Shown: positions 2,650-37,536 of the stretch, piece after piece | How positions within the stretch are numbered: the stretch's first letter is position 1 | Layout of the letters: each line of letters begins with the position of its first letter | Sequence record: NC_019704.1 | Direction: 5' to 3' (one strand) | From: Enterobacteria phage mEp237 | Length of the DNA: 44,375 nucleotides | Notes under the pieces: model-generated | The model's database searches: none | Seen by the model: only the letters and a program-made list of their open reading frames with translations | Told to the model about the DNA's origin: nothing | Translations under genes and position numbers: made by a program

Positions 2650-4238
2650 AAATACCATCTTTGGTGGGACCTGACGGGAAAACATCCCTTCGGGAATACG
2701 CAGGATATCATGGCGGTGGAGGCGGGTTTGGTGGGCAGCTGCGAGGCTGGAATCCGCCGAGTGAAAGTGCAGATGCCGCACTCCTACCCAACTATTCTCG
2801 CGGAAATGCCCGCGCTGACGATCTGGTGCGAAATAATGGCTACGCGGCAAACGCCGTGCAGCTCCACCAGGACCACATCGTCGGGTCATTTTTCAGACTA
2901 AGTTATCGACCAAGCTGGCGTTATCTGGGAATAAATGAGGAGGATTCACGGGCATTCTCGCGGGATGTGGAAGCTGCATGGAATGAGTATGCCGAGGACG
3001 ACTTTTGCGGGATTGATGCCGAGCGTAAGCGAACGTTTACGATGATGATCCGAGAAGGTGTGGCCATGCACGCGTTTAACGGTGAATTATGCACGCAGGC
3101 GACCTGGGACAGCGATTCAACGCGTCTTTTCCGTACTCAGTTCAAAATGGTCAGTCCGAAGCGCGTCAGCAATCCGAATAATATCGGTGATACCCGGAAC
3201 TGTCGCGCCGGTGTGAAAATAAATGATAGCGGTGCTGCGCTGGGATATTACGTCAGCGACGATGGTTATCCCGGCTGGATGGCGCAGAACTGGACCTACA
3301 TTCCTCGCGAACTACCCGGCGGTCGACCTTCATTTATCCATGTATTCGAACCGATGGAGGATGGACAGACCCGTGGGGCCAATGCGTTTTACAGCGTGAT
3401 GGAGCAGATGAAAATGCTCGATACCCTGCAAAATACCCAGCTCCAGAGCGCGATAGTGAAGGCTATGTATGCCGCTACCATCGAGAGTGAACTGGATACC
3501 CAATCGGCGATGGACTTTATTCTCGGCGCGGATAATAAAGAGCAGCAGAGCAAACTTACGGGCTGGCTCGGTGAAATGGCGTCCTATTACTCAGCTGCGC
3601 CTGTTCGCCTGGGTGGGGCAAGGGTTCCACACCTGTTGCCGGGTGATTCTCTCAACCTTCAGTCGGCGCAGGATACCGATAACGGCTACTCGACTTTTGA
3701 ACAGTCCCTGCTGCGTTATATTGCCGCTGGGCTTGGTGTGTCGTATGAGCAGCTTTCGCGAAACTATTCGCAGATGAGCTACTCGACCGCACGCGCAAGT
3801 GCTAACGAGTCCTGGGCGTACTTTATGGGGCGTCGCAAGTTTGTGGCATCCCGACAGGCCTGTCAGATGTTTCTTTGCTGGCTTGAAGAGGCGATTGTCC
3901 GCCGCGTGGTCACGCTTCCTTCGAAAGCCCGGTTCAGTTTCCAGGAGGCGAGAACAGCCTGGGGGAATGCCAACTGGATTGGCTCTGGTCGAATGGCAAT
4001 TGACGGGCTGAAAGAGGTACAGGAGGCCGTCATGCTCATTGAGGCAGGTCTCAGCACGTATGAAAAAGAGTGCGCCAAACGCGGTGATGATTATCAGGAG
4101 ATTTTTGCCCAGCAGGTCCGGGAAACCATGGAGCGTCGTGCTGCGGGTCTGAAACCACCGGCATGGGCCGCTGCAGCTTTTGAGGCCGGAGTGAAAAAAT
4201 CAAACGAGGAGGAGCAAGATGGCGCACGAGCTGCGTAA
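2646..4238 (+). CDS. B: Portal protein (lambda gpB homolog)
   Basis: 530 aa; strong similarity to remembered lambda gpB along its length; ATGA overlap with W. Confidence 0.95.
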
Positions 4239-21911: not shown

Positions 21912-21930
21912 TACTGTTTATTTATACAGT
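21912..21930. promoter_or_regulatory. LexA (SOS) box upstream of the DinI-like gene
   Basis: TACTGTTTATTTATACAGT: perfect CTGT-N8-ACAG core (21914-21929), about 40 nt upstream of the start codon. Confidence 0.75.
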
Positions 21931-23203: not shown

Positions 23204-23478
23204 TAACGGGAAAGAAACAGAGAAGGGCACAAATATTGTGTACTTTAATGTGCCCTTTAATTTATTGATTGGTGGTTGAATTGTCCGTAACTTTTTGATT
23301 TAAGTGCAAATTTCTAATAAATTAGAACACTTTCTTAAATTGTCATTTGGCATATTACGAACAATTCCGCGTAAAAACGTTCTGTTACGCTAAACCCTTA
23401 TCCAGTAGGCTTTCAAGGATGTAAACCATAACACTCTGCGAACTAGTGTTACATTGCGTGTAGCTTTGAGTGGGCAAC

Positions 23479-23519
23479 TTTGTGTACACTTTTGTGTACC
23501 CAAAAACAAAAATGTGTAC
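23479..23519. repeat. Three direct repeats of TTTGTGTAC / ATGTGTAC just upstream of int (candidate integrase arm sites)
   Basis: TGTGTAC at 23481-23487, 23494-23500 and 23513-23519; a fourth copy at 23237-23243. Confidence 0.5.
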
Positions 23520-23526
23520 CCATTCA

Positions 23527-24720
23527 ATGATCACCGACACAAAGCTCAGGAAGGCGCTCGGCAAGAAAAGAGATGATATCGAGATTATTTCTGATTCGCA
23601 CGGGCTCAACGCCAGAATCAGCCAGGCCGGAAAAATATCATTTTTCTATCGGTATCGCTGGGCCGGTAAAGCGGTAAAACTCAATGTTGGTGATTATCCT
23701 GCAATGAGTATCACCCAGGCAAGAGAGCGTCGCCAACAATTCAGAAACTGGTTAACTGAGGGACTGGATCCGCGAGAGCAGGTGAAGCTGGATAAGCAGA
23801 CCCGACAGGAAGCGATGTCCGTTGCCGAAGCGTTCAATTACTGGATTGAAAGGCACTGTATCGCTAACGGGCTAGTTAAAGTCGATTACTATCGCCAGGT
23901 GTTTGAGAAACATATCGCCGAACCGATGAAGAATGTCAAAGTCGATAACACAGCGAAAATGCACTGGATCAACGTCTTCGATTCTATAGAAAGCAGGGTG
24001 ATGGCTCATTACATGCTTTCGCTGTGCAAACGGGCGTTTAGGTTCTGCGTTAACAGAAGTGTGATCGCCTCAAACCCACTCGAGGGATTACTGCCATCTG
24101 ATGTCGGGCAAAAGCCTAAAAAGAGAACTCGCAGGATGGACGATGACGATCTGCGCAAAATCTATCAGTGGTTGAAAAGCCATATGTCGATAGAGTCCGT
24201 TTTCCTGGTGAAATTTATTATGCTTACCGGATGCCGTACGGCTGAGATTCGACTTAGTGAGAGATCATGGTTTCGATTGGATGATAATGAGTGGGTCGTG
24301 CCTGCGGGCAGTTATAAAACTCGGGTACATATTAGAAGGGGACTCTCAGACGCCGCCGTTAACCTGGTCAGAAATCACCTCAAGAAAATAAACACCAATC
24401 ACCTGGTGACTTCACAACGTAAAATTGATGGCGGGATCAAAGATTCGCCCGTTCATTCACCTGTGGCATCCAATTACGCCCGTTCTATTTGGAATGGAAC
24501 AGGTATGGCAGAGTGGTCGCTTCATGATATGAGGCGGACGATAGCCACAAATCTCTCTGAGTTAGGTTGCCCGCCGCACGTAATTGAAAAGCTGCTCGGG
24601 CATCAGATGGTGGGGGTTATGGCGCATTACAACCTTCATGACTATATCGATGATCAGAAACACTGGCTCCGCGTTTGGCAGAGCCATCTTGAAGAGATCA
24701 TCGGAGAGCCCTTCAGTTAA
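23527..24720 (+). CDS. int: Tyrosine integrase (P4-like phage integrase family)
   Basis: Start MITDTKLRK typical of P4-like integrases; C-terminal catalytic region (HDMRRT..., LLGHQ...HYNLHDY); track start 23470 and ATG 23512 are alternatives. Confidence 0.92.
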
Positions 24721-25236: not shown

Positions 25237-26355
25237 TCAGGCCACGTATTCCGGTTTCATATCCGCCAGGGTGATGCTGAATTGATCGTGCAGTTCATCG
25301 CCTAAGTGACGCTTTGAAGATGCAAGCATGCGCTCGGCTTCAGCGAACCGTTCGGCTGCATGCGGCTCGTCGGGCTGGGGCAGGGATTTAATAGCCTCCT
25401 CAACCTTGTTGCGTGCATCCACTAGGTAATAACGCTTTACGGCTTTGTTTTTCAGCTCGGTGAATAGTGCGGATCCCAGCGTAGCTTTCGCCGTTTCAAT
25501 GTCGGCACGCAGCGATTTGGCGCTATCCACGTCCTGAGCAGATTCGATGCGTTCGCGGAAATCATCGGCAAGAGAGTCGACATTTACCGACGATTCCTGT
25601 GCGCTTTGCGTGGTTGTGACGGTGTCACCTGAGATATCAGCCAGGCTAACGCGTTGCGGCGTTGGGTTGATCTCTTTTTCTGTGCGCTGTTCAATCTCAT
25701 CAGGGGTGTACACACCAAGAACAACTGCAGGGCAATACAGGCGCGCCCAGTATTTGAGTGCCAGATAAGCGATCTGCTGTTTCGGGTTTGATACCCAAAG
25801 TGGAGAATTACGTGTGATTACGCTGGAGAGGAAAACAGGCTCTCCCCAGGTGATATCACTTTCACCGCGAATAACGGCACCTACCCGTACCGACAGTCCT
25901 TGTTCATCAGCACTTTCCCAACCGCGTACCATTTCTTTCTTGTCGTACGTCCCGCCACCTTTCGCAGGCTTTTTAACGGTTATCTCGCGGCTGCTGGCAC
26001 ATTTCGACCAGTCGCCCTCGTACTCATAGTGAAAGCGGCCAACGATGGCGTTTGAGCTGGAGATCACCGCATTAACCAGTTGCGCTTCGTATCCCAGGAC
26101 ACCGTTAACCAGGTGCGTCTTTTGCGCCACGGCGTAAGGGTTCATACCCCACTGCATCGCCTGCATGATGATGGCCATGCAGTCTGCCGGATTGCCGCGG
26201 AGGTGCTCAGGCACCGTTACGGCTGCCTGTGCCATCAACCCGGCGACAGACTGAAGCTGGGTTAAAGCCTGCACGTTGAAAATGGCATTGCTGGCTGAGA
26301 TCGTGTTTGGAGTCTGCTGCTCAGCGGTTACGATATTCGTGTTTTCCATCATCAT
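25237..26355 (-). CDS. Putative single-strand annealing protein (RecT-like; family uncertain)
   Basis: 372-aa ORF directly downstream of the RecE-like exonuclease gene; called by position and general character, not by a recognised motif. Confidence 0.55.
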   Translation of the reverse strand: MMMENTNIVTAEQQTPNTISASNAIFNVQALTQLQSVAGLMAQAAVTVPEHLRGNPADCMAIIMQAMQWGMNPYAVAQKTHLVNGVLGYEAQLVNAVISSSNAIVGRFHYEYEGDWSKCASSREITVKKPAKGGGTYDKKEMVRGWESADEQGLSVRVGAVIRGESDITWGEPVFLSSVITRNSPLWVSNPKQQIAYLALKYWARLYCPAVVLGVYTPDEIEQRTEKEINPTPQRVSLADISGDTVTTTQSAQESSVNVDSLADDFRERIESAQDVDSAKSLRADIETAKATLGSALFTELKNKAVKRYYLVDARNKVEEAIKSLPQPDEPHAAERFAEAERMLASSKRHLGDELHDQFSITLADMKPEYVA

Positions 26356-26360
26356 TCCCC

Positions 26361-29270
26361 TTATGCCTGAGTACGCAGCGCTTCAAGGCGGCGCAGGTCG
26401 AAGTCGTTCAGTTCGTCGGTGTAGTCAGCAGTGATTGGCGCTGGCCATTCACCTGTGTCGAATCCGGTTGCGATATTGCGCATCGCTTTGCGGTACTCGA
26501 GCATACCCAGCTCCAGTAGTTCAGCGGATGCCTCGATGATGGCGATCCAGTGGTAGTTCTCGTCTTTGTTGACGAAAATCCAGAAGAACTGATCCAGCGC
26601 TGCGGTTTCGCAGTACATAGCCGCGCTCAGGTGATAATCACGTTCAATAATTTCCCGGTGTAGCCTGGCGCGCAGGCTTTCCTGCTTAACATTCCACATG
26701 CTGATGGTTTTCAGGTCTGCACCTATACGCACGCCATCCAGGTCGATCTCAAGGTCAGGGCGCACACGAACTTCCAAGCCCGTCTCCTCGTCAAAACCAA
26801 AGTAGCTCACCTCAACGGCTCGGCTAGGGTGGGTCAGCAGCATGCCGGCGGTCGGGTGTGCCAGAAGCGCTTTTTGAATATTCAGCGCGGTGCTCAGCTG
26901 CTGGCGGGTGACCAGCACTTTTCCTTCCGGGTTATCGCGCCAGGCATCCAGCAGTTCGTCGGCAAATACGGCATCTGGTTTGACTGCCTTCACGGCCTGG
27001 ATCATGTCTGCTTTGGTACCGGACACTTTCAGTGGTGCCGGTTTCTGTGCTTCCTGAGCCACAAGGTCAGGGTTGATGATTGCCAACTGCTCCAGCAGCG
27101 CGTCACGGCTGCCGCTGGTTTTAACCGGCGGCGGCAGGGTGGCGTTGTACTCTTTAATGCATGCCTTCATTGCCGTCGCCGTCTGCTTCTGGTCACCATC
27201 AATACGCTGGAAGTCAGCTGGCAGCGCCATATAGTTCTGTGCCGTTTCTTCCAGGTTAGCGCCAAGCGGAACCTGCGGCGGCAGGGTGGCGTTGTACTCT
27301 TCCAGTAACACCTTGATGTCGTCGGCAGACAGCAGCGCCGGCAGGCTGGCATTGTGCTCATCGATAAAGGCGCGCAGGGTCGCGGCCGTTGTGAATGCGC
27401 CTTCAGGGATCACCGGTTCAACGCTGAATTCTGCGTCCAGTAGTTCAGGCTGCAACGCCAGCGCATGCACCAAGTTGCCCATGTCCAGCACCGCTGAGCG
27501 CTCTTTGACGATGGTTTTCTCTACGTGGCGCGCATTGAAGTACATCAGCGAAACGCGCGCATCTTTCACCTGGGTTGAGCTGATGCCGTTGGCGGCGTGG
27601 TAAACCTCGTTTGGCAGCCCTTCATAGCGGCCTGGCTCGAAATAAGCGGGATAAACAACAGCTGGTTCGTCAGATTGCGCTTCTGGCTCGGTTTGTGCTG
27701 CAACTGGTTCGGTTTGGCTTACAGAATCGCTATTTTTGGCGACAGAATCCGTATTCTGGTTTACATCGTCCTTCTGGCCGGGATGTGACTCTTCACCAGA
27801 CTCCAGACTGCTTTCGCCTGGCTGTACTTCATCACCAGCTTGTTTTTCATCACTGACAGTTTCTTGAACCTGCACATTGCTGGTGGTCTCCGTAGCCTTT
27901 TTCGTGCCATGAGTTGCTGAGTTCTGCAGCAAAGCCGTAACGTCGAATATTCCGTTGCCGACATTTTTAACCAGTTCTTGTTCGACTTTCTGCGGTTGTG
28001 CTGCCGCTTCCTCTGCGCGGCGGCGTGCTCCTTCTTCACGCACGCGTTGCAGGTTCTCTTCGTGAGTGCAGAAGGATTTGCGCGGAGACTCCTTACCTTC
28101 AGGTTGGGGAATTTCCTGTGTTGCGGGTTCAGCCTCATGCAACGGCAATAACTCGACCGCGGAATTGAACGCGGCTGTCATGGTCTGGTTAACAAATTCC
28201 AGGTGAGCGACAGGAGTTAAATGAATATTTTCCGGTGCGATACGTACCAGGTTAAAAATAGCCGTGCGGTTAACACCCAGAACGCCTGGCTGATTGCGCA
28301 GGATGTTGCTCCATGATTTCCATGGTTCTTCTTTTTTGGTCACGATTTCTTTAGCGCGACGAAGAATGCTGCCCGGGATCTCGAAGTGGTTGAAGTCCAT
28401 AGGCAGAAGGGCACACGCAATCTCTAAATCGAGAGTGTCCAGTGTGTGGTGTGCGTCAGGTCCACGGTCAGTGACGTAACCGCCGTCGGCATTAGTGCCG
28501 GAATCAGTACGCTGCACACTACTGATGCGATTACCGGCGGCCCATTCACGCGCCAGGATGCCACGGTCAATGTAATCAGTCGCCGCCCACATTCTGGTGA
28601 AACGGAGTACCAGCGCGAGTTCGTGACGCTTGTCCTGGCTGAACACTTTGCGAATGGCATCGGTGTAGCGCCACAGGTCTTTGGTGTCGTAACCCTTCAC
28701 TTCCGGGCAGTTCTCAGCAGCTAACAGCAAGTTCTGGACGTAACTGTTATCAGTGTCCATCTCCAGCGCGCCGATAGCTTCGTACTCTTCGTGGGTTACG
28801 TGGTGGCGCAGTTCGTCGGCGGTGAACTGGGAAAGCAGTTGCTTACGAAACGGCATCTGCACTACCGGGTAGAGGGTTGAGTCGTCGTCGTGTTCGTCCA
28901 GCGTGATGCCAGCGGTTTCTGGCAGCGTTGACTCAGTAGTTATGTGACTATCAACGGTCTGAGCCGTTTTCTCGTCAGAGTTTTCAGCTGTGACTTTTGG
29001 CAGCCAGGTGCGGTCATCGTTCTGCAGTTCGTAGCGTTCGCACCAGGTGTAATCCACTGCGCCTTCTTCCGGCAGGTCGTCATATACCGGGAAATCGGTG
29101 CGGATTGGTTTGGCATAATCTTTACCGCGGCCAGTTTCTTCAATTCCGGCTTCTTCCAGTGCCACATCGAGTTGGAGATTGGCGCGCGCTACACTTTTCG
29201 CAGTGAACCAAATCACTGCATCTTTCTTACCAGACTTCTGACTGGCTTTTATCAGATGGAAAAATTCCAT
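26361..29270 (-). CDS. recE: RecE-like exonuclease (exodeoxyribonuclease VIII type) with C-terminal PD-(D/E)XK domain
   Basis: 969 aa; C-terminal nuclease-like region (VRVRPDLEIDLDG...ADLKT); acidic repetitive linker; paired with the downstream annealing-protein candidate. Confidence 0.75.
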   Translation of the reverse strand: MEFFHLIKASQKSGKKDAVIWFTAKSVARANLQLDVALEEAGIEETGRGKDYAKPIRTDFPVYDDLPEEGAVDYTWCERYELQNDDRTWLPKVTAENSDEKTAQTVDSHITTESTLPETAGITLDEHDDDSTLYPVVQMPFRKQLLSQFTADELRHHVTHEEYEAIGALEMDTDNSYVQNLLLAAENCPEVKGYDTKDLWRYTDAIRKVFSQDKRHELALVLRFTRMWAATDYIDRGILAREWAAGNRISSVQRTDSGTNADGGYVTDRGPDAHHTLDTLDLEIACALLPMDFNHFEIPGSILRRAKEIVTKKEEPWKSWSNILRNQPGVLGVNRTAIFNLVRIAPENIHLTPVAHLEFVNQTMTAAFNSAVELLPLHEAEPATQEIPQPEGKESPRKSFCTHEENLQRVREEGARRRAEEAAAQPQKVEQELVKNVGNGIFDVTALLQNSATHGTKKATETTSNVQVQETVSDEKQAGDEVQPGESSLESGEESHPGQKDDVNQNTDSVAKNSDSVSQTEPVAAQTEPEAQSDEPAVVYPAYFEPGRYEGLPNEVYHAANGISSTQVKDARVSLMYFNARHVEKTIVKERSAVLDMGNLVHALALQPELLDAEFSVEPVIPEGAFTTAATLRAFIDEHNASLPALLSADDIKVLLEEYNATLPPQVPLGANLEETAQNYMALPADFQRIDGDQKQTATAMKACIKEYNATLPPPVKTSGSRDALLEQLAIINPDLVAQEAQKPAPLKVSGTKADMIQAVKAVKPDAVFADELLDAWRDNPEGKVLVTRQQLSTALNIQKALLAHPTAGMLLTHPSRAVEVSYFGFDEETGLEVRVRPDLEIDLDGVRIGADLKTISMWNVKQESLRARLHREIIERDYHLSAAMYCETAALDQFFWIFVNKDENYHWIAIIEASAELLELGMLEYRKAMRNIATGFDTGEWPAPITADYTDELNDFDLRRLEALRTQA

Positions 29271-35493: not shown

Positions 35494-35838
35494 ATGAACA
35501 TAACAATCCGTGAGCAGGTGCTGGCAGCCCTGCGCAACAACCCAGGGTTGAACAACGCCAAACTGGCAGGGCTTATCGGCATGGACACCAAAAAGATATC
35601 CGGAACGGTGAGCACGCTGCTGGCAGACGGCCTGATCCGCTGCGAAGGAAAATACGGCCAGCGCCTTTACAGCCTGACCAGCTACGGAATGCGCTTCGCC
35701 CCTGACACGATACCTGGCATGAAGCAGGGTAAGTCGAAGTTAATTCAGCGGACGGACACAAACGTGATCTGCCAGGAGTGCCGCAACAGCGCGGCGATGA
35801 GAAGGGTATTGATGGTTTGGGGGAGGGTAGGGGTATGA
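35494..35838 (+). CDS. ren: Ren-like protein
   Basis: 114 aa after P; C-terminal ECRNSAAMRRVLMVWGRV resembles lambda Ren ECRQSAAMKRVLAVYGV. Confidence 0.7.
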   Translation: MNITIREQVLAALRNNPGLNNAKLAGLIGMDTKKISGTVSTLLADGLIRCEGKYGQRLYSLTSYGMRFAPDTIPGMKQGKSKLIQRTDTNVICQECRNSAAMRRVLMVWGRVGV

Positions 35839-36032
35839 AAATCGAAGATATCAAAAACGTTGCGGTGTTCTTCAATATGAACGGCAAGACAGTAGCGTTA
35901 CGAATGGATGCTGAGCAGAAGCGGATCGTCGCATTAATGGCGCTTAACACGGCTGATGCTCGGGCAGAACTGATTGAAGTGCCGCACATGACTTTACCAG
36001 CAGACCCAGCCATGGAGGAGGCCGCCCAATGA
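35835..36032 (+). CDS. Hypothetical protein
   Basis: 65-aa ORF (MKIEDIKNVAV...) with ATGA overlap to ren and a G-rich RBS. Confidence 0.5.
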   Translation: MKIEDIKNVAVFFNMNGKTVALRMDAEQKRIVALMALNTADARAELIEVPHMTLPADPAMEEAAQ

Positions 36033-36047
36033 GCAACATCGACAAAC

Positions 36048-36452
36048 GTGGATTACGGGAAGCAGCGGAGAAGGCGACGAAAGGCGGGTGGGCTGCACGT
36101 AGGGGAGGTGAAAACCACTCTTGCGGTCGATGAATACGACGAACATCGCGCGCAGCTGGCGTTGGAGTTCCTGCGTAAGTACTGCGGTGAGGATTGCGAC
36201 GGGCTGGTAGATATTGACAGAATCACTTTTCGCATCGTTGATATCGGTATGCGGATGCTGCAACCGCACGAGCTATACCGCGTGCAGGGCTTCCCGGAGT
36301 GGTACATCATCGATCAGGACTATCGGGGGCAGAAGTACGCGAAGGACAAGCAGGTTGCGCGTTGTGGCAACGCAGTTCCGCCGCCATTCGCCGAGGCACT
36401 GGTGAGAGCTAATTTACCGGAGCTTTGTCAGCAGAAAGAGATCGCAGCTTAA
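36048..36452 (+). pseudogene. Truncated DNA cytosine-5 methyltransferase (C-terminal fragment only)
   Basis: Only C-terminal motifs present (RMLQPHELYRVQGFPEWY, ARCGNAVPPPFAEAL); no motif I/IV region upstream; a diverged second copy of the last about 20 codons lies at 36975-37040. Confidence 0.65.
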
Positions 36453-36551
36453 TGTCCGAGTTTCAGAACATGGTGTAACAAATCCTGCTACTTCAATGAC
36501 GTAGATTCAAACCTGATATAATTAGGCTCTTCACAACACGAGGAGCCTAAA

Positions 36552-36788
36552 ATGCACCATTACATGATCCCTATCAACGGAACTGTTCACCTGATCAAGA
36601 CTGACTCTCTAATCCCTGAAGGGACTGAGTATAGCTTTGAAGGAGAAAGTCTAATCTGCGCTCATGCCACTTTTAAATCTGGGACGTATGGCTTCCTGAT
36701 ACCAAAGGGAAATCAGTTGAATAGAGAGCATGCGTTCTGGCATGTAAGTGGAATTCACCCTAATCCCCTGGGAATGGATAAATCGTAA
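36552..36788 (+). CDS. Hypothetical protein in a cassette inserted into the methyltransferase remnant
   Basis: 78-aa ORF with GAGGAG RBS; followed by a 14-bp-stem hairpin. Confidence 0.5.
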   Translation: MHHYMIPINGTVHLIKTDSLIPEGTEYSFEGESLICAHATFKSGTYGFLIPKGNQLNREHAFWHVSGIHPNPLGMDKS

Positions 36789-37057
36789 TCCATAATATGC
36801 ATGCCATCGTCCTGAACATACGGTGGCATGCATCCGGCACTACAACAGAAACGTTAAAGTGCAAACAATACAATTCGAGCAATATTCAACCTGTCACAGA
36901 TGGCGAATACCACCGCCATTTCGTGCATTCTGTGGTTTCTATTACCCATTGCGTTAATGCTGTCCAATCATCAGCTCGCTGAGGCGCTGGTTAGGGCTAA
37001 CCTACAGGAGCTTTGTCAGCAGAAACAAATAGCGGCGTAATAAAACATCGCTAATTC

Positions 37058-37085
37058 AACCCGCTACGGCGGGTTTTCTTTTTTT
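37058..37085 (+). terminator. Intrinsic terminator after the methyltransferase remnant
   Basis: Stem AACCCGC / GCGGGTT with loop TACG, followed by an 11-nt T-rich run. Confidence 0.7.
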
Positions 37086-37147
37086 ACTACTGACAGAAAA
37101 TTAACAATTTGTGCTCTTAAAACGTTGATCATTTCCGCGCATAGGTA

Positions 37148-37167
37148 TACTGTATAAAAACACAGTA
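37148..37167. promoter_or_regulatory. LexA (SOS) box upstream of the second DinI-like gene
   Basis: TACTGTATAAAAACACAGTA: perfect CTGT-N8-ACAG (37150-37165), about 20 nt upstream of the start codon. Confidence 0.78.
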
Positions 37168-37185
37168 CATGCAATGGGGGCCATT

Positions 37186-37419
37186 ATGAAAGTTGAATTA
37201 ACCATTGATCGCATGAAAGAACTTCCTAAAGGCGCAGTACCAGCACTGGAGAAAGAACTGCTTAAGCGCCTGAATGATCACTATGACAATTGCAGGCTCA
37301 CAATCCGCCGTGCCGGGGCCGATGGGTTAAGTGTTTTTGGTGGTGACAAGGACGATAAAAAGAAAATTGAATCAATCCTCCAGGATACCTGGGAAAGCGC
37401 TGACGACTGGTTTTATTAG
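37186..37419 (+). CDS. dinI: DinI-family protein
   Basis: 77 aa from MKVELTIDR; matches remembered E. coli DinI pattern including C-terminal ESILQDTWESADDWF; G-rich RBS. Confidence 0.88.
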   Translation: MKVELTIDRMKELPKGAVPALEKELLKRLNDHYDNCRLTIRRAGADGLSVFGGDKDDKKKIESILQDTWESADDWFY

Positions 37420-37536
37420 AATTGCGCTTAAGGCTGGCGCGCATTTTTCAGAATACCGCAATTTGCGTAACCCTCTGATGCTGCTGCCGACAATCTTTAA
37501 TCGCGTCTGTTAGTCGCTCGAAGGGAGAACATAAAT

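Follow-up and report, generated by a model that had tools for sequence, protein, structure and literature searches.

The last codons of a cytosine methyltransferase gene occur twice in the genome of Enterobacteria phage mEp237, in two diverged copies that flank DNA of lower GC content, and only the end of the gene itself is left. What happened to the enzyme, and is the DNA between the copies the cause of its loss? The window, i.e. the whole stretch of DNA analyzed, is 44,375 nucleotides long (sequence record NC_019704.1), and the locus occupies positions 36048-37040 within it. An initial annotation, made from the letters alone, read the locus as a mosaic junction where homologous recombination between methyltransferase alleles inserted a cassette and destroyed the gene. 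Comparison with relatives argues for another course of events. The locus is very probably a scar-rich mosaic joint, in which modules stand in series, each with its own methyltransferase tail, the enzyme was lost by a separate deletion, and the tails serve as sites of recombination.

The locus belongs to the early-right (nin-like) part of an E. coli lambdoid prophage that encodes RecET, with the following surroundings:

23470-24720: integrase, upstream of the locus
25237-26355, minus strand: RecT (PF03837)
26361-29270, minus strand: RecE, 969 residues in the window
up to 35492 (the end of P): repressor region, then replication genes O and P, upstream of the locus
35494-35838: winged-helix gene, upstream of the locus
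35835-36032: 65-codon gene, upstream of the locus
37186-37419, plus strand: dinI-family gene (PF06183, E 4e-26)
downstream of the locus, along with dinI: DUF1367, DUF1364, rusA, and antiterminator genes

The relatives compared with it include 28 IMG/VR loci that carry ORF78, the small gene between the two copies, and complete E. coli genomes. The closest complete genome is that of E. coli CUWW10, with 99.9% identity across 35800-37500. Its prophage is apparently of the window type, in a different context or with a different left arm. Window positions 1-23320 show no collinearity with CUWW10, and RecE is longer in CUWW10 than in the window.

The left part of the locus contains the remains of two genes:

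36029..36095, plus strand: 5' stub of an ead/Ea22-like gene, ~22 codons, forming the left side of deletion 1
36083..36095, plus strand: deletion 1 junction, within a microhomology, GGCGGGTGGGCTG, of 9 nt for certain and likely 13 nt
36084..36452, plus strand: C5 cytosine methyltransferase pseudogene, the last 122 codons (end of the target-recognition region, motifs IX and X, stop)

The window methyltransferase is a dead C5 enzyme gene, a pseudogene. The fragment matches only profile positions 270-320 of the 324 in Pfam PF00145 (E 3.9e-7) and positions 259-399 of the 400 in phrog_23072, and it is 99.2% identical to residues 551-672 of an open 672-codon frame in the IMG/VR contig L022. In CUWW10, PGAP labels the segment corresponding to 36084-36452 as 'DNA cytosine methyltransferase, incomplete, missing N-terminus'. 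Motifs IX and X are present in the translation of 36048-36452 (LYRVQGFPEWY and CGNAVPPPF), which bears out the earlier statement that only C-terminal methyltransferase motifs remain. Motifs I (FxGxG, AdoMet binding), IV (Pro-Cys nucleophile), and VI (ENV) are absent from the window by tblastn with the L022 enzyme, whose own frame displays DNFAGGGG, SPDCRHFS, and MLENVEEF and is matched by PF00145 in its N-terminal and C-terminal parts. Across the whole 44 kb, the same search with the intact enzyme returned only residues 551-672 and the 21-residue copy B. A full-length enzyme encoded through a frameshift or splice, the escape that the initial annotation had left for itself, is ruled out, as the N-terminal part is nowhere in the window. 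No intron was found with Rfam at E<=1, where the sole match (anti-hemB, E 0.27) falls on the terminator and is spurious. A self-splicing intron or homing-endonuclease insertion was likewise rejected, given that no ribozyme fold is present and ORF78 has no endonuclease domain. Copy A ends with its own stop codon, and copy B duplicates copy A rather than continuing it. The fragment has motifs IX and X in common with the phage orphan C5 cytosine methyltransferases (PF00145; phrog_23072, phrog_116) and matches the C terminus of the 672-codon enzyme, one of their family, at 99% identity, but ~550 codons are missing at its N-terminal end, among them those for the AdoMet-binding and catalytic-cysteine motifs.

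The gene had been taken to begin at a GTG at 36048, and this start has to be abandoned. Homology to methyltransferases begins at ~36084-36087, and 36029-36095 is the 5' end of the ead/Ea22-like gene. The stub covers positions 1-22 of the PF13935 (Ead_Ea22) profile, runs out of frame from there to a stop at 36133, and shares 98-99% identity with the beginning of ead in two phages, HK225 and Omnitron, as well as in prophages of E. coli. A complete ead gene is present in L022 at 613-990. L022 and L038, a second IMG/VR contig, have the same P, winged-helix, and 65-codon genes as the window, and after these a complete ead gene, then four small genes and the open 672-codon methyltransferase. From 36096 to dinI, they are 100% identical to the window except in copy A, which has one mismatch (98.5%). 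A three-way alignment with the window shows ~2.87 kb missing between a left (~667-679) and a right (~3532-3544) position of L022, and finds GGCGGGTGGGCTG at two sites, in the ead gene and at methyltransferase codon ~550. Deletion 1 took the remainder of ead, all four small genes, and the first 550 methyltransferase codons, and joins the ead/Ea22 stub to codon 551. As judged from these alignments, it was the ~2.87-kb deletion, not the cassette, that killed the window methyltransferase, because the identical series of copy A, cassette, copy B, and dinI stands behind an uninterrupted 672-codon frame in L022 and L038. Full-length methyltransferase and cassette also occur together in the diverged loci L025 and L031.

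A second deletion joins nucleotide 80 of the winged-helix gene to 36284 at the 9-nt microhomology GCAGGGCTT; it is present in most IMG/VR matches and in no fewer than 29 further complete E. coli genomes. Deletion 2 is independent of deletion 1, and since the two junctions each map to a microhomology, the enzyme was evidently lost twice by ordinary short-homology deletions. Lysogens with a window-type prophage are predicted to be without phage-derived 5-methylcytosine. PGAP calls a 66-residue 'hypothetical protein' (WP_001299077.1, at L002 3929-4129) in ~29 genomes of E. coli. This protein is an artefact of deletion 2, in which winged-helix codons 1-27 are fused to an out-of-frame piece of the methyltransferase.

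The right part of the locus, from the true end of the methyltransferase to dinI, is arranged as follows:

36388..36453, plus strand: copy A, last 21 codons and stop of the methyltransferase allele preceding ORF78, its true 3' end
36454..36551, plus strand: ORF78 leader, with an extended -10-like element TGATATAAT at 36514-36522 and a Shine-Dalgarno sequence GAGGAG at 36540-45
36552..36788, plus strand: ORF78, 78 codons, a conserved small phage gene of family phrog_30079
36789..36975, plus strand: right arm of the cassette, non-coding
36797..36833, plus strand: stem-loop, 8 nt past the ORF78 stop, with arms at 36797-36810 and 36820-36833
36976..37041, plus strand: copy B, 3'-terminal relic of another methyltransferase allele, joined to the dinI module
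37058..37085, plus strand: intrinsic terminator (terminator scan), a 7-bp stem and T-run
37150..37165, plus strand: LexA-box-like CTGT-N8-ACAG, CTGTATAAAAACACAG, between the terminator and dinI

Copies A and B are 66 nt long, 82% identical, and 588 nt apart, and have in common a 19-nt block, GGAGCTTTGTCAGCAGAAA. This repeat is far beyond chance. The second copy had been described as ~80% identical and placed at 36975-37040, within one nucleotide of its position here, and the two ends are related on alignment. In translation, copy B has 86% identity to the last 21 residues of the intact enzyme, and it is 95-98% identical to methyltransferase stubs found ahead of dinI or of a gene denoted ORF78' (TC24, MSB1_9D, M172-1). 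All eight diverged variants share one junction between copy B and the right arm, which is therefore old and of single origin.

The lower-GC DNA between the copies, first estimated at ~520 bp, measures 523 bp with 43% GC, and base composition shifts from ~0.56-0.60 GC in the methyltransferase fragment to ~0.43 in 36400-36900. The 78-residue ORF reported within it is there, at the coordinates above. Its conservation and position mark ORF78 as a real gene with its normal place right after the methyltransferase stop. ORF78 matches phrog_30079 over the full length (E 7e-49), is intact in 28 of 28 IMG/VR loci and in 32 complete E. coli genomes, and has 96.6-99.6% nucleotide identity, compared with 86-89% in the adjacent non-coding flanks. 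An AF2 model (pLDDT 80.5) has five strands and one helix. Strain H5 has a homologue of 78 residues and 42% identity in the same position (WP_016247098.1). The occurrence of this ORF elsewhere, suggested at the outset as a check, was examined: homologues stand directly after full-length methyltransferases in strain H5, in L025 and L031, and in viral contigs of which L035 is an example. The first 76 nt of the leader are 87-88% conserved ahead of the 42%-identical homologue in H5-type loci. Insertion of the cassette into the gene as foreign DNA was rejected, since ORF78 and its leader are the native downstream neighbor of methyltransferases, as in H5.

The -10-like element and the GAGGAG were read by eye from the sequence, and a consensus promoter scan detected no sigma-70 site in the leader. 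Searches of Pfam, NCBIfam, and PADLOC gave no match to ORF78, and tblastn against 50,697 GenBank phages gave nothing. A word-index protein search yielded 2 clusters. Exhaustive HMMER searching yielded 9 matches in 1.84 billion representatives, ~4 of them true members and the rest long repetitive proteins. Two scans of species-representative genomes found neither ORF78 peptide patterns nor a right-arm motif. Behind the ORF78 homologue, H5-type phages have a canonical terminator and then a DNA polymerase III theta (HolE-like) gene, not dinI:

L005 4299-4556: H5-type theta arrangement
L033 and L035 4330-4587: H5-type theta arrangement

The 14-bp hairpin described earlier at 36797-36833 was confirmed. 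Its arms of 14 nt each are 93% complementary, with an RNA dG of -21.8 kcal/mol and a z of -4.2 versus shuffles. It has no T-run and was not reported by the terminator scan, whereas the H5-type homologue has a canonical terminator in place of such a stem-loop. A core of 9-10 bp is kept in the eight diverged variants, with G-U-compatible changes. This element is probably an mRNA 3' stem-loop or a weak terminator. The rest of the right arm was compared with the methyltransferase body, and kinship was rejected, the similarity being not above shuffles save in the last ~35 nt. There, 36941-36975 has weak similarity to motif-X codons (z 3-4.8 versus shuffles). These nucleotides may be degenerate motif-X codons, and copy B may extend ~30 nt upstream in degenerate form, to ~36941. 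No right arm without ORF78 and copy B was found, all 22 IMG/VR contigs with the arm being ORF78 contigs, and a search of IMG/VR and species-representative genomes found no pre-fusion parent of the right arm-copy B junction. The segment from the ORF78 stop to the terminator (36786-37090) folds better than shuffles, with a z of -4.9, and may be a structured 3' UTR. The few compensatory pairs all come from one lineage, and a firmer claim of structured RNA was rejected because the covariation is too thin. The arm also holds the start of a 46-codon ORF (36900-37040), which has a hydrophobic N-half, MANTTAISCILWFLLPIALMLS, and runs into the frame of the methyltransferase tail.

On the other side of copy B, the terminator is conserved along with copy B and dinI in relatives, and it originally followed the methyltransferase gene. 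Klebsiella phage 5 LV-2017 has a full-length methylase and then directly a dinI homologue. Elsewhere, stubs of the methyltransferase stand ahead of the terminator, LexA box, and dinI, with lengths of 168 nt (WEM25, AR_0119, M172-1), 99 nt (KMi029, KL53), and 73 nt (TC24). These groups differ in their upstream junction, and shorter stubs also occur. Selection for a minimum stub length was considered and rejected in view of ascertainment bias and the existence of ~22-nt stubs. From these arrangements, we infer that copy B is a methyltransferase 3' end left behind on the terminator-LexA box-dinI module. The sequence at 37150-37165, which we take to be a LexA box from the known SOS-box consensus, suggests that the prophage dinI is SOS-regulated. 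A second CTGT-N8-ACAG is present at 21914-21929. In L028, L029, and L031, a putative lipoprotein gene follows copy B. The slot behind the methyltransferase tail is used by several alternative modules, namely ORF78, theta, dinI, and the lipoprotein gene.

The alignment with intact methyltransferases that had been recommended for mapping the breakpoints puts them at both tails, with deletion 1 mapped separately to its microhomology. Relative to the window, L025 has 84-92% identity in the methyltransferase, 89% in tail A, 100, 98.7, and 97% in the cassette, 89% in tail B, and 92% in dinI. The level of identity changes at tail A only in L024 and at the boundary of right arm and tail B in L026, and in L028, L029, and L031 homology with the window stops right after tail B. 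MSB1_9D and KL53 are identical in their upstream genes, share the 99-nt stub, and diverge behind it, with ORF78' and theta in MSB1_9D and dinI in KL53. The cassette is absent in four genomes with the 36284 deletion junction (WEM25, AR_0119, M172-1, and GPEC60-12-649); the cassette-less sequence was checked for the first three, and GPEC60-12-649 was placed with WEM25 and AR_0119 solely on blastn identity and annotation. In WEM25 and AR_0119, the tail is of the A type up to the 19-nt identical block and of the B type beyond it. In M172-1, the switch from A to B falls at GAGGC near the start of the repeat, where there are 5 common bases, and would fit heteroduplex repair better than a simple crossover. 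Such chimeric tails are what recombination between A and B is expected to produce, resolved, to go by these sequences, at two or more points. The genomes without the cassette could, in principle, have been recipients and not products of deletion. With identity breaks at both tails and chimeric A/B tails in cassette-less relatives, the methyltransferase tail is supported as a recurrent joint for homologous recombination. Rad52-like phage recombinases recombine short ~12%-diverged sequences, and E. coli phage mosaics are often flanked by 'HR traces' (PMC3945230). Going by this literature, a RecT-type annealing protein is probably the agent at the tail.

How do other explanations of the doubled gene end fare? 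The proposal that allelic recombination inserted a foreign cassette into the methyltransferase and thereby destroyed it draws on two diverged 3' ends that do flank lower-GC DNA, and on recombination breakpoints that do fall in the tails. It is nevertheless improbable. The cassette and both copies lie beside intact frames in L022, L038, L025, and L031, copy A is complete to its stop codon, and the ORF78 leader is native downstream of the methyltransferase in H5-type phages. Inactivation is accounted for by the 2.87-kb deletion, which is unrelated and lies 300 nt upstream of copy A. Those parts of the initial annotation that concern a mosaic joint and homologous exchange at the 3' ends stand, and the part in which the cassette destroys the gene falls with these four loci. 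A duplicated, diverged 3' gene end is also left by integrative elements, such as phage 21 and e14 in icd or numerous genomic islands in tRNA genes. The locus could by analogy be the remnant of a site-specific integrative element at the methyltransferase 3' end, copy A being element-borne and copy B the displaced original. The layout (gene, alternative 3' end, cargo, displaced original end) is common to both, the 19-nt identical block could be a core, and the WEM25-type empty site is exactly copy A before this core and copy B after it. Unlike phage 21 and e14, however, the window locus has no integrase and no core conserved across variants. The 523 bp are without integrase or recombinase, their only ORF family, phrog_30079, having no such domain by Pfam, NCBIfam, or PADLOC. 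Moreover, the 19-nt block has 4 mismatches between the copies in L028, L029, and L031, the crossover points vary, with that of M172-1 lying elsewhere, and terminal inverted repeats were not found. This origin is extremely improbable.

The remaining alternative concerns what the right arm and copy B (36789-37085) do rather than how they arose. They might be kept as a functional 3' UTR or small RNA, or as the 46-codon hydrophobic peptide with a co-opted tail. Their folding relative to shuffles, the junction conserved in all variants, and the hydrophobic N-half of the small ORF, with roughly equal synonymous and non-synonymous changes, are compatible with such a role. Against the peptide, the start is lost in L030 and the frame broken in L027, two of the eight variants, the frame is shifted ahead of the tail in four more (L025, L028, L029, L031), and a Shine-Dalgarno sequence is absent; to judge from the variants, the 46-codon ORF is probably not a gene. 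Against the RNA, compensatory pairs are few and confined to the one lineage, and the only Rfam match is not credible. Pfam, PADLOC, and NCBIfam gave no match for the segment. Retention for function thus has very little probability in either form.

The scar-rich joint can be laid out as a series of steps. The parent carried P, the winged-helix gene, and the 65-codon gene, then a complete ead/Ea22 gene with four small genes behind it, and a full-length orphan methyltransferase ending in copy A, followed by the ORF78 module, copy B, the terminator, the LexA box, and dinI, an order still extant in L022 and L038. Deletion of ~2.87 kb between two copies of GG(C/G)GGTGGGCTG then inactivated the enzyme, and an independent deletion at GCAGGGCTT did likewise in ~30 other E. 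coli genomes. By its position, ORF78 is a self-contained module with a -10-like element, a strong ribosome-binding site, the gene, and the stem-loop, which may be expressed on its own signals. Copy B would be the displaced 3' end of another methyltransferase allele, kept on the terminator-dinI module, and one old recombination event may have put the ORF78 and dinI modules in series, each with its own gene end. The ~66-nt tail has since acted as a patch of imperfect homology through which modules are swapped or deleted, probably by a relaxed recombination enzyme, and recombination between A and B drops the cassette and leaves chimeric tails. A more ambitious version makes the ORF78 module a homology-guided 'plug-in' cassette, exchanged by RecT/Red-type annealing at the ~66-nt patch and open to gain or loss by whichever phage has a methyltransferase tail. 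The tail and terminator would then be kept as a linker for exchange instead of persisting as a relic, and ORF78, a family that is rare and lacks annotation, would owe its strong conservation to a benefit for the lysogen or to an anti-defence role. This extension is conceivable, if rather unlikely.

As a scar-rich joint, the locus resembles known forms of lambdoid mosaicism in part. Like the HR-trace mosaics of lambdoid phages (De Paepe et al. 2014, PMC3945230), it has a cassette core of 97-100% identity flanked by 89% tails, and the window phage encodes a RecT-family annealing protein, with exchanges at ~12-18% divergence. L025 shows a high-identity block with lower-identity homologous flanks, and in L024 the break is on the left side only. 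Here, in contrast to those mosaics, the homology patch occurs twice in tandem and also drives internal deletion of the intervening module. A moron is an independently expressed gene between genes that are adjacent in related phages (definition quoted in PMC2629481). ORF78 resembles one in lying between the methyltransferase and dinI, in its lower GC content, and in its promoter-like element and downstream stem-loop. The genes on either side are adjacent in relatives, the tail standing directly before the terminator and dinI in WEM25, AR_0119, and M172-1 and the methylase directly before dinI in 5 LV-2017, and GC content is ~0.43 compared with 0.56-0.60 in the neighbors. ORF78 differs from morons in that its promoter and terminator are putative, the stem-loop being without a T-run, and in that a duplicated gene end bounds the module, which is not a moron trait.

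The locus is textbook lambdoid mosaicism together with prophage decay, and its value reaches little beyond annotation and teaching. For these purposes, it is a clean natural example of lambdoid remodelling, with two independent microhomology deletions in the same methyltransferase, a short 82%-identical repeat resolved at at least two crossover points in nature, and a gene end that serves as a joint for the exchange of downstream modules (ORF78, theta, dinI, and the lipoprotein gene). It also flags the conserved 78-codon gene of phrog_30079, which has no PGAP gene call in 32 complete E. coli genomes, though PGAP calls the H5 homologue.

Sequences that look like terminators (AAACC.GCTA..GCGGGTTTTTT) occur directly upstream of the 99-nt stubs, and those at the following places resemble the terminator after copy B:

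L009 3181-3217 and ~3460-3500: terminator-like sequences
L039 ~2930-2966: terminator-like sequence

Terminators may themselves be junction sequences in this region.
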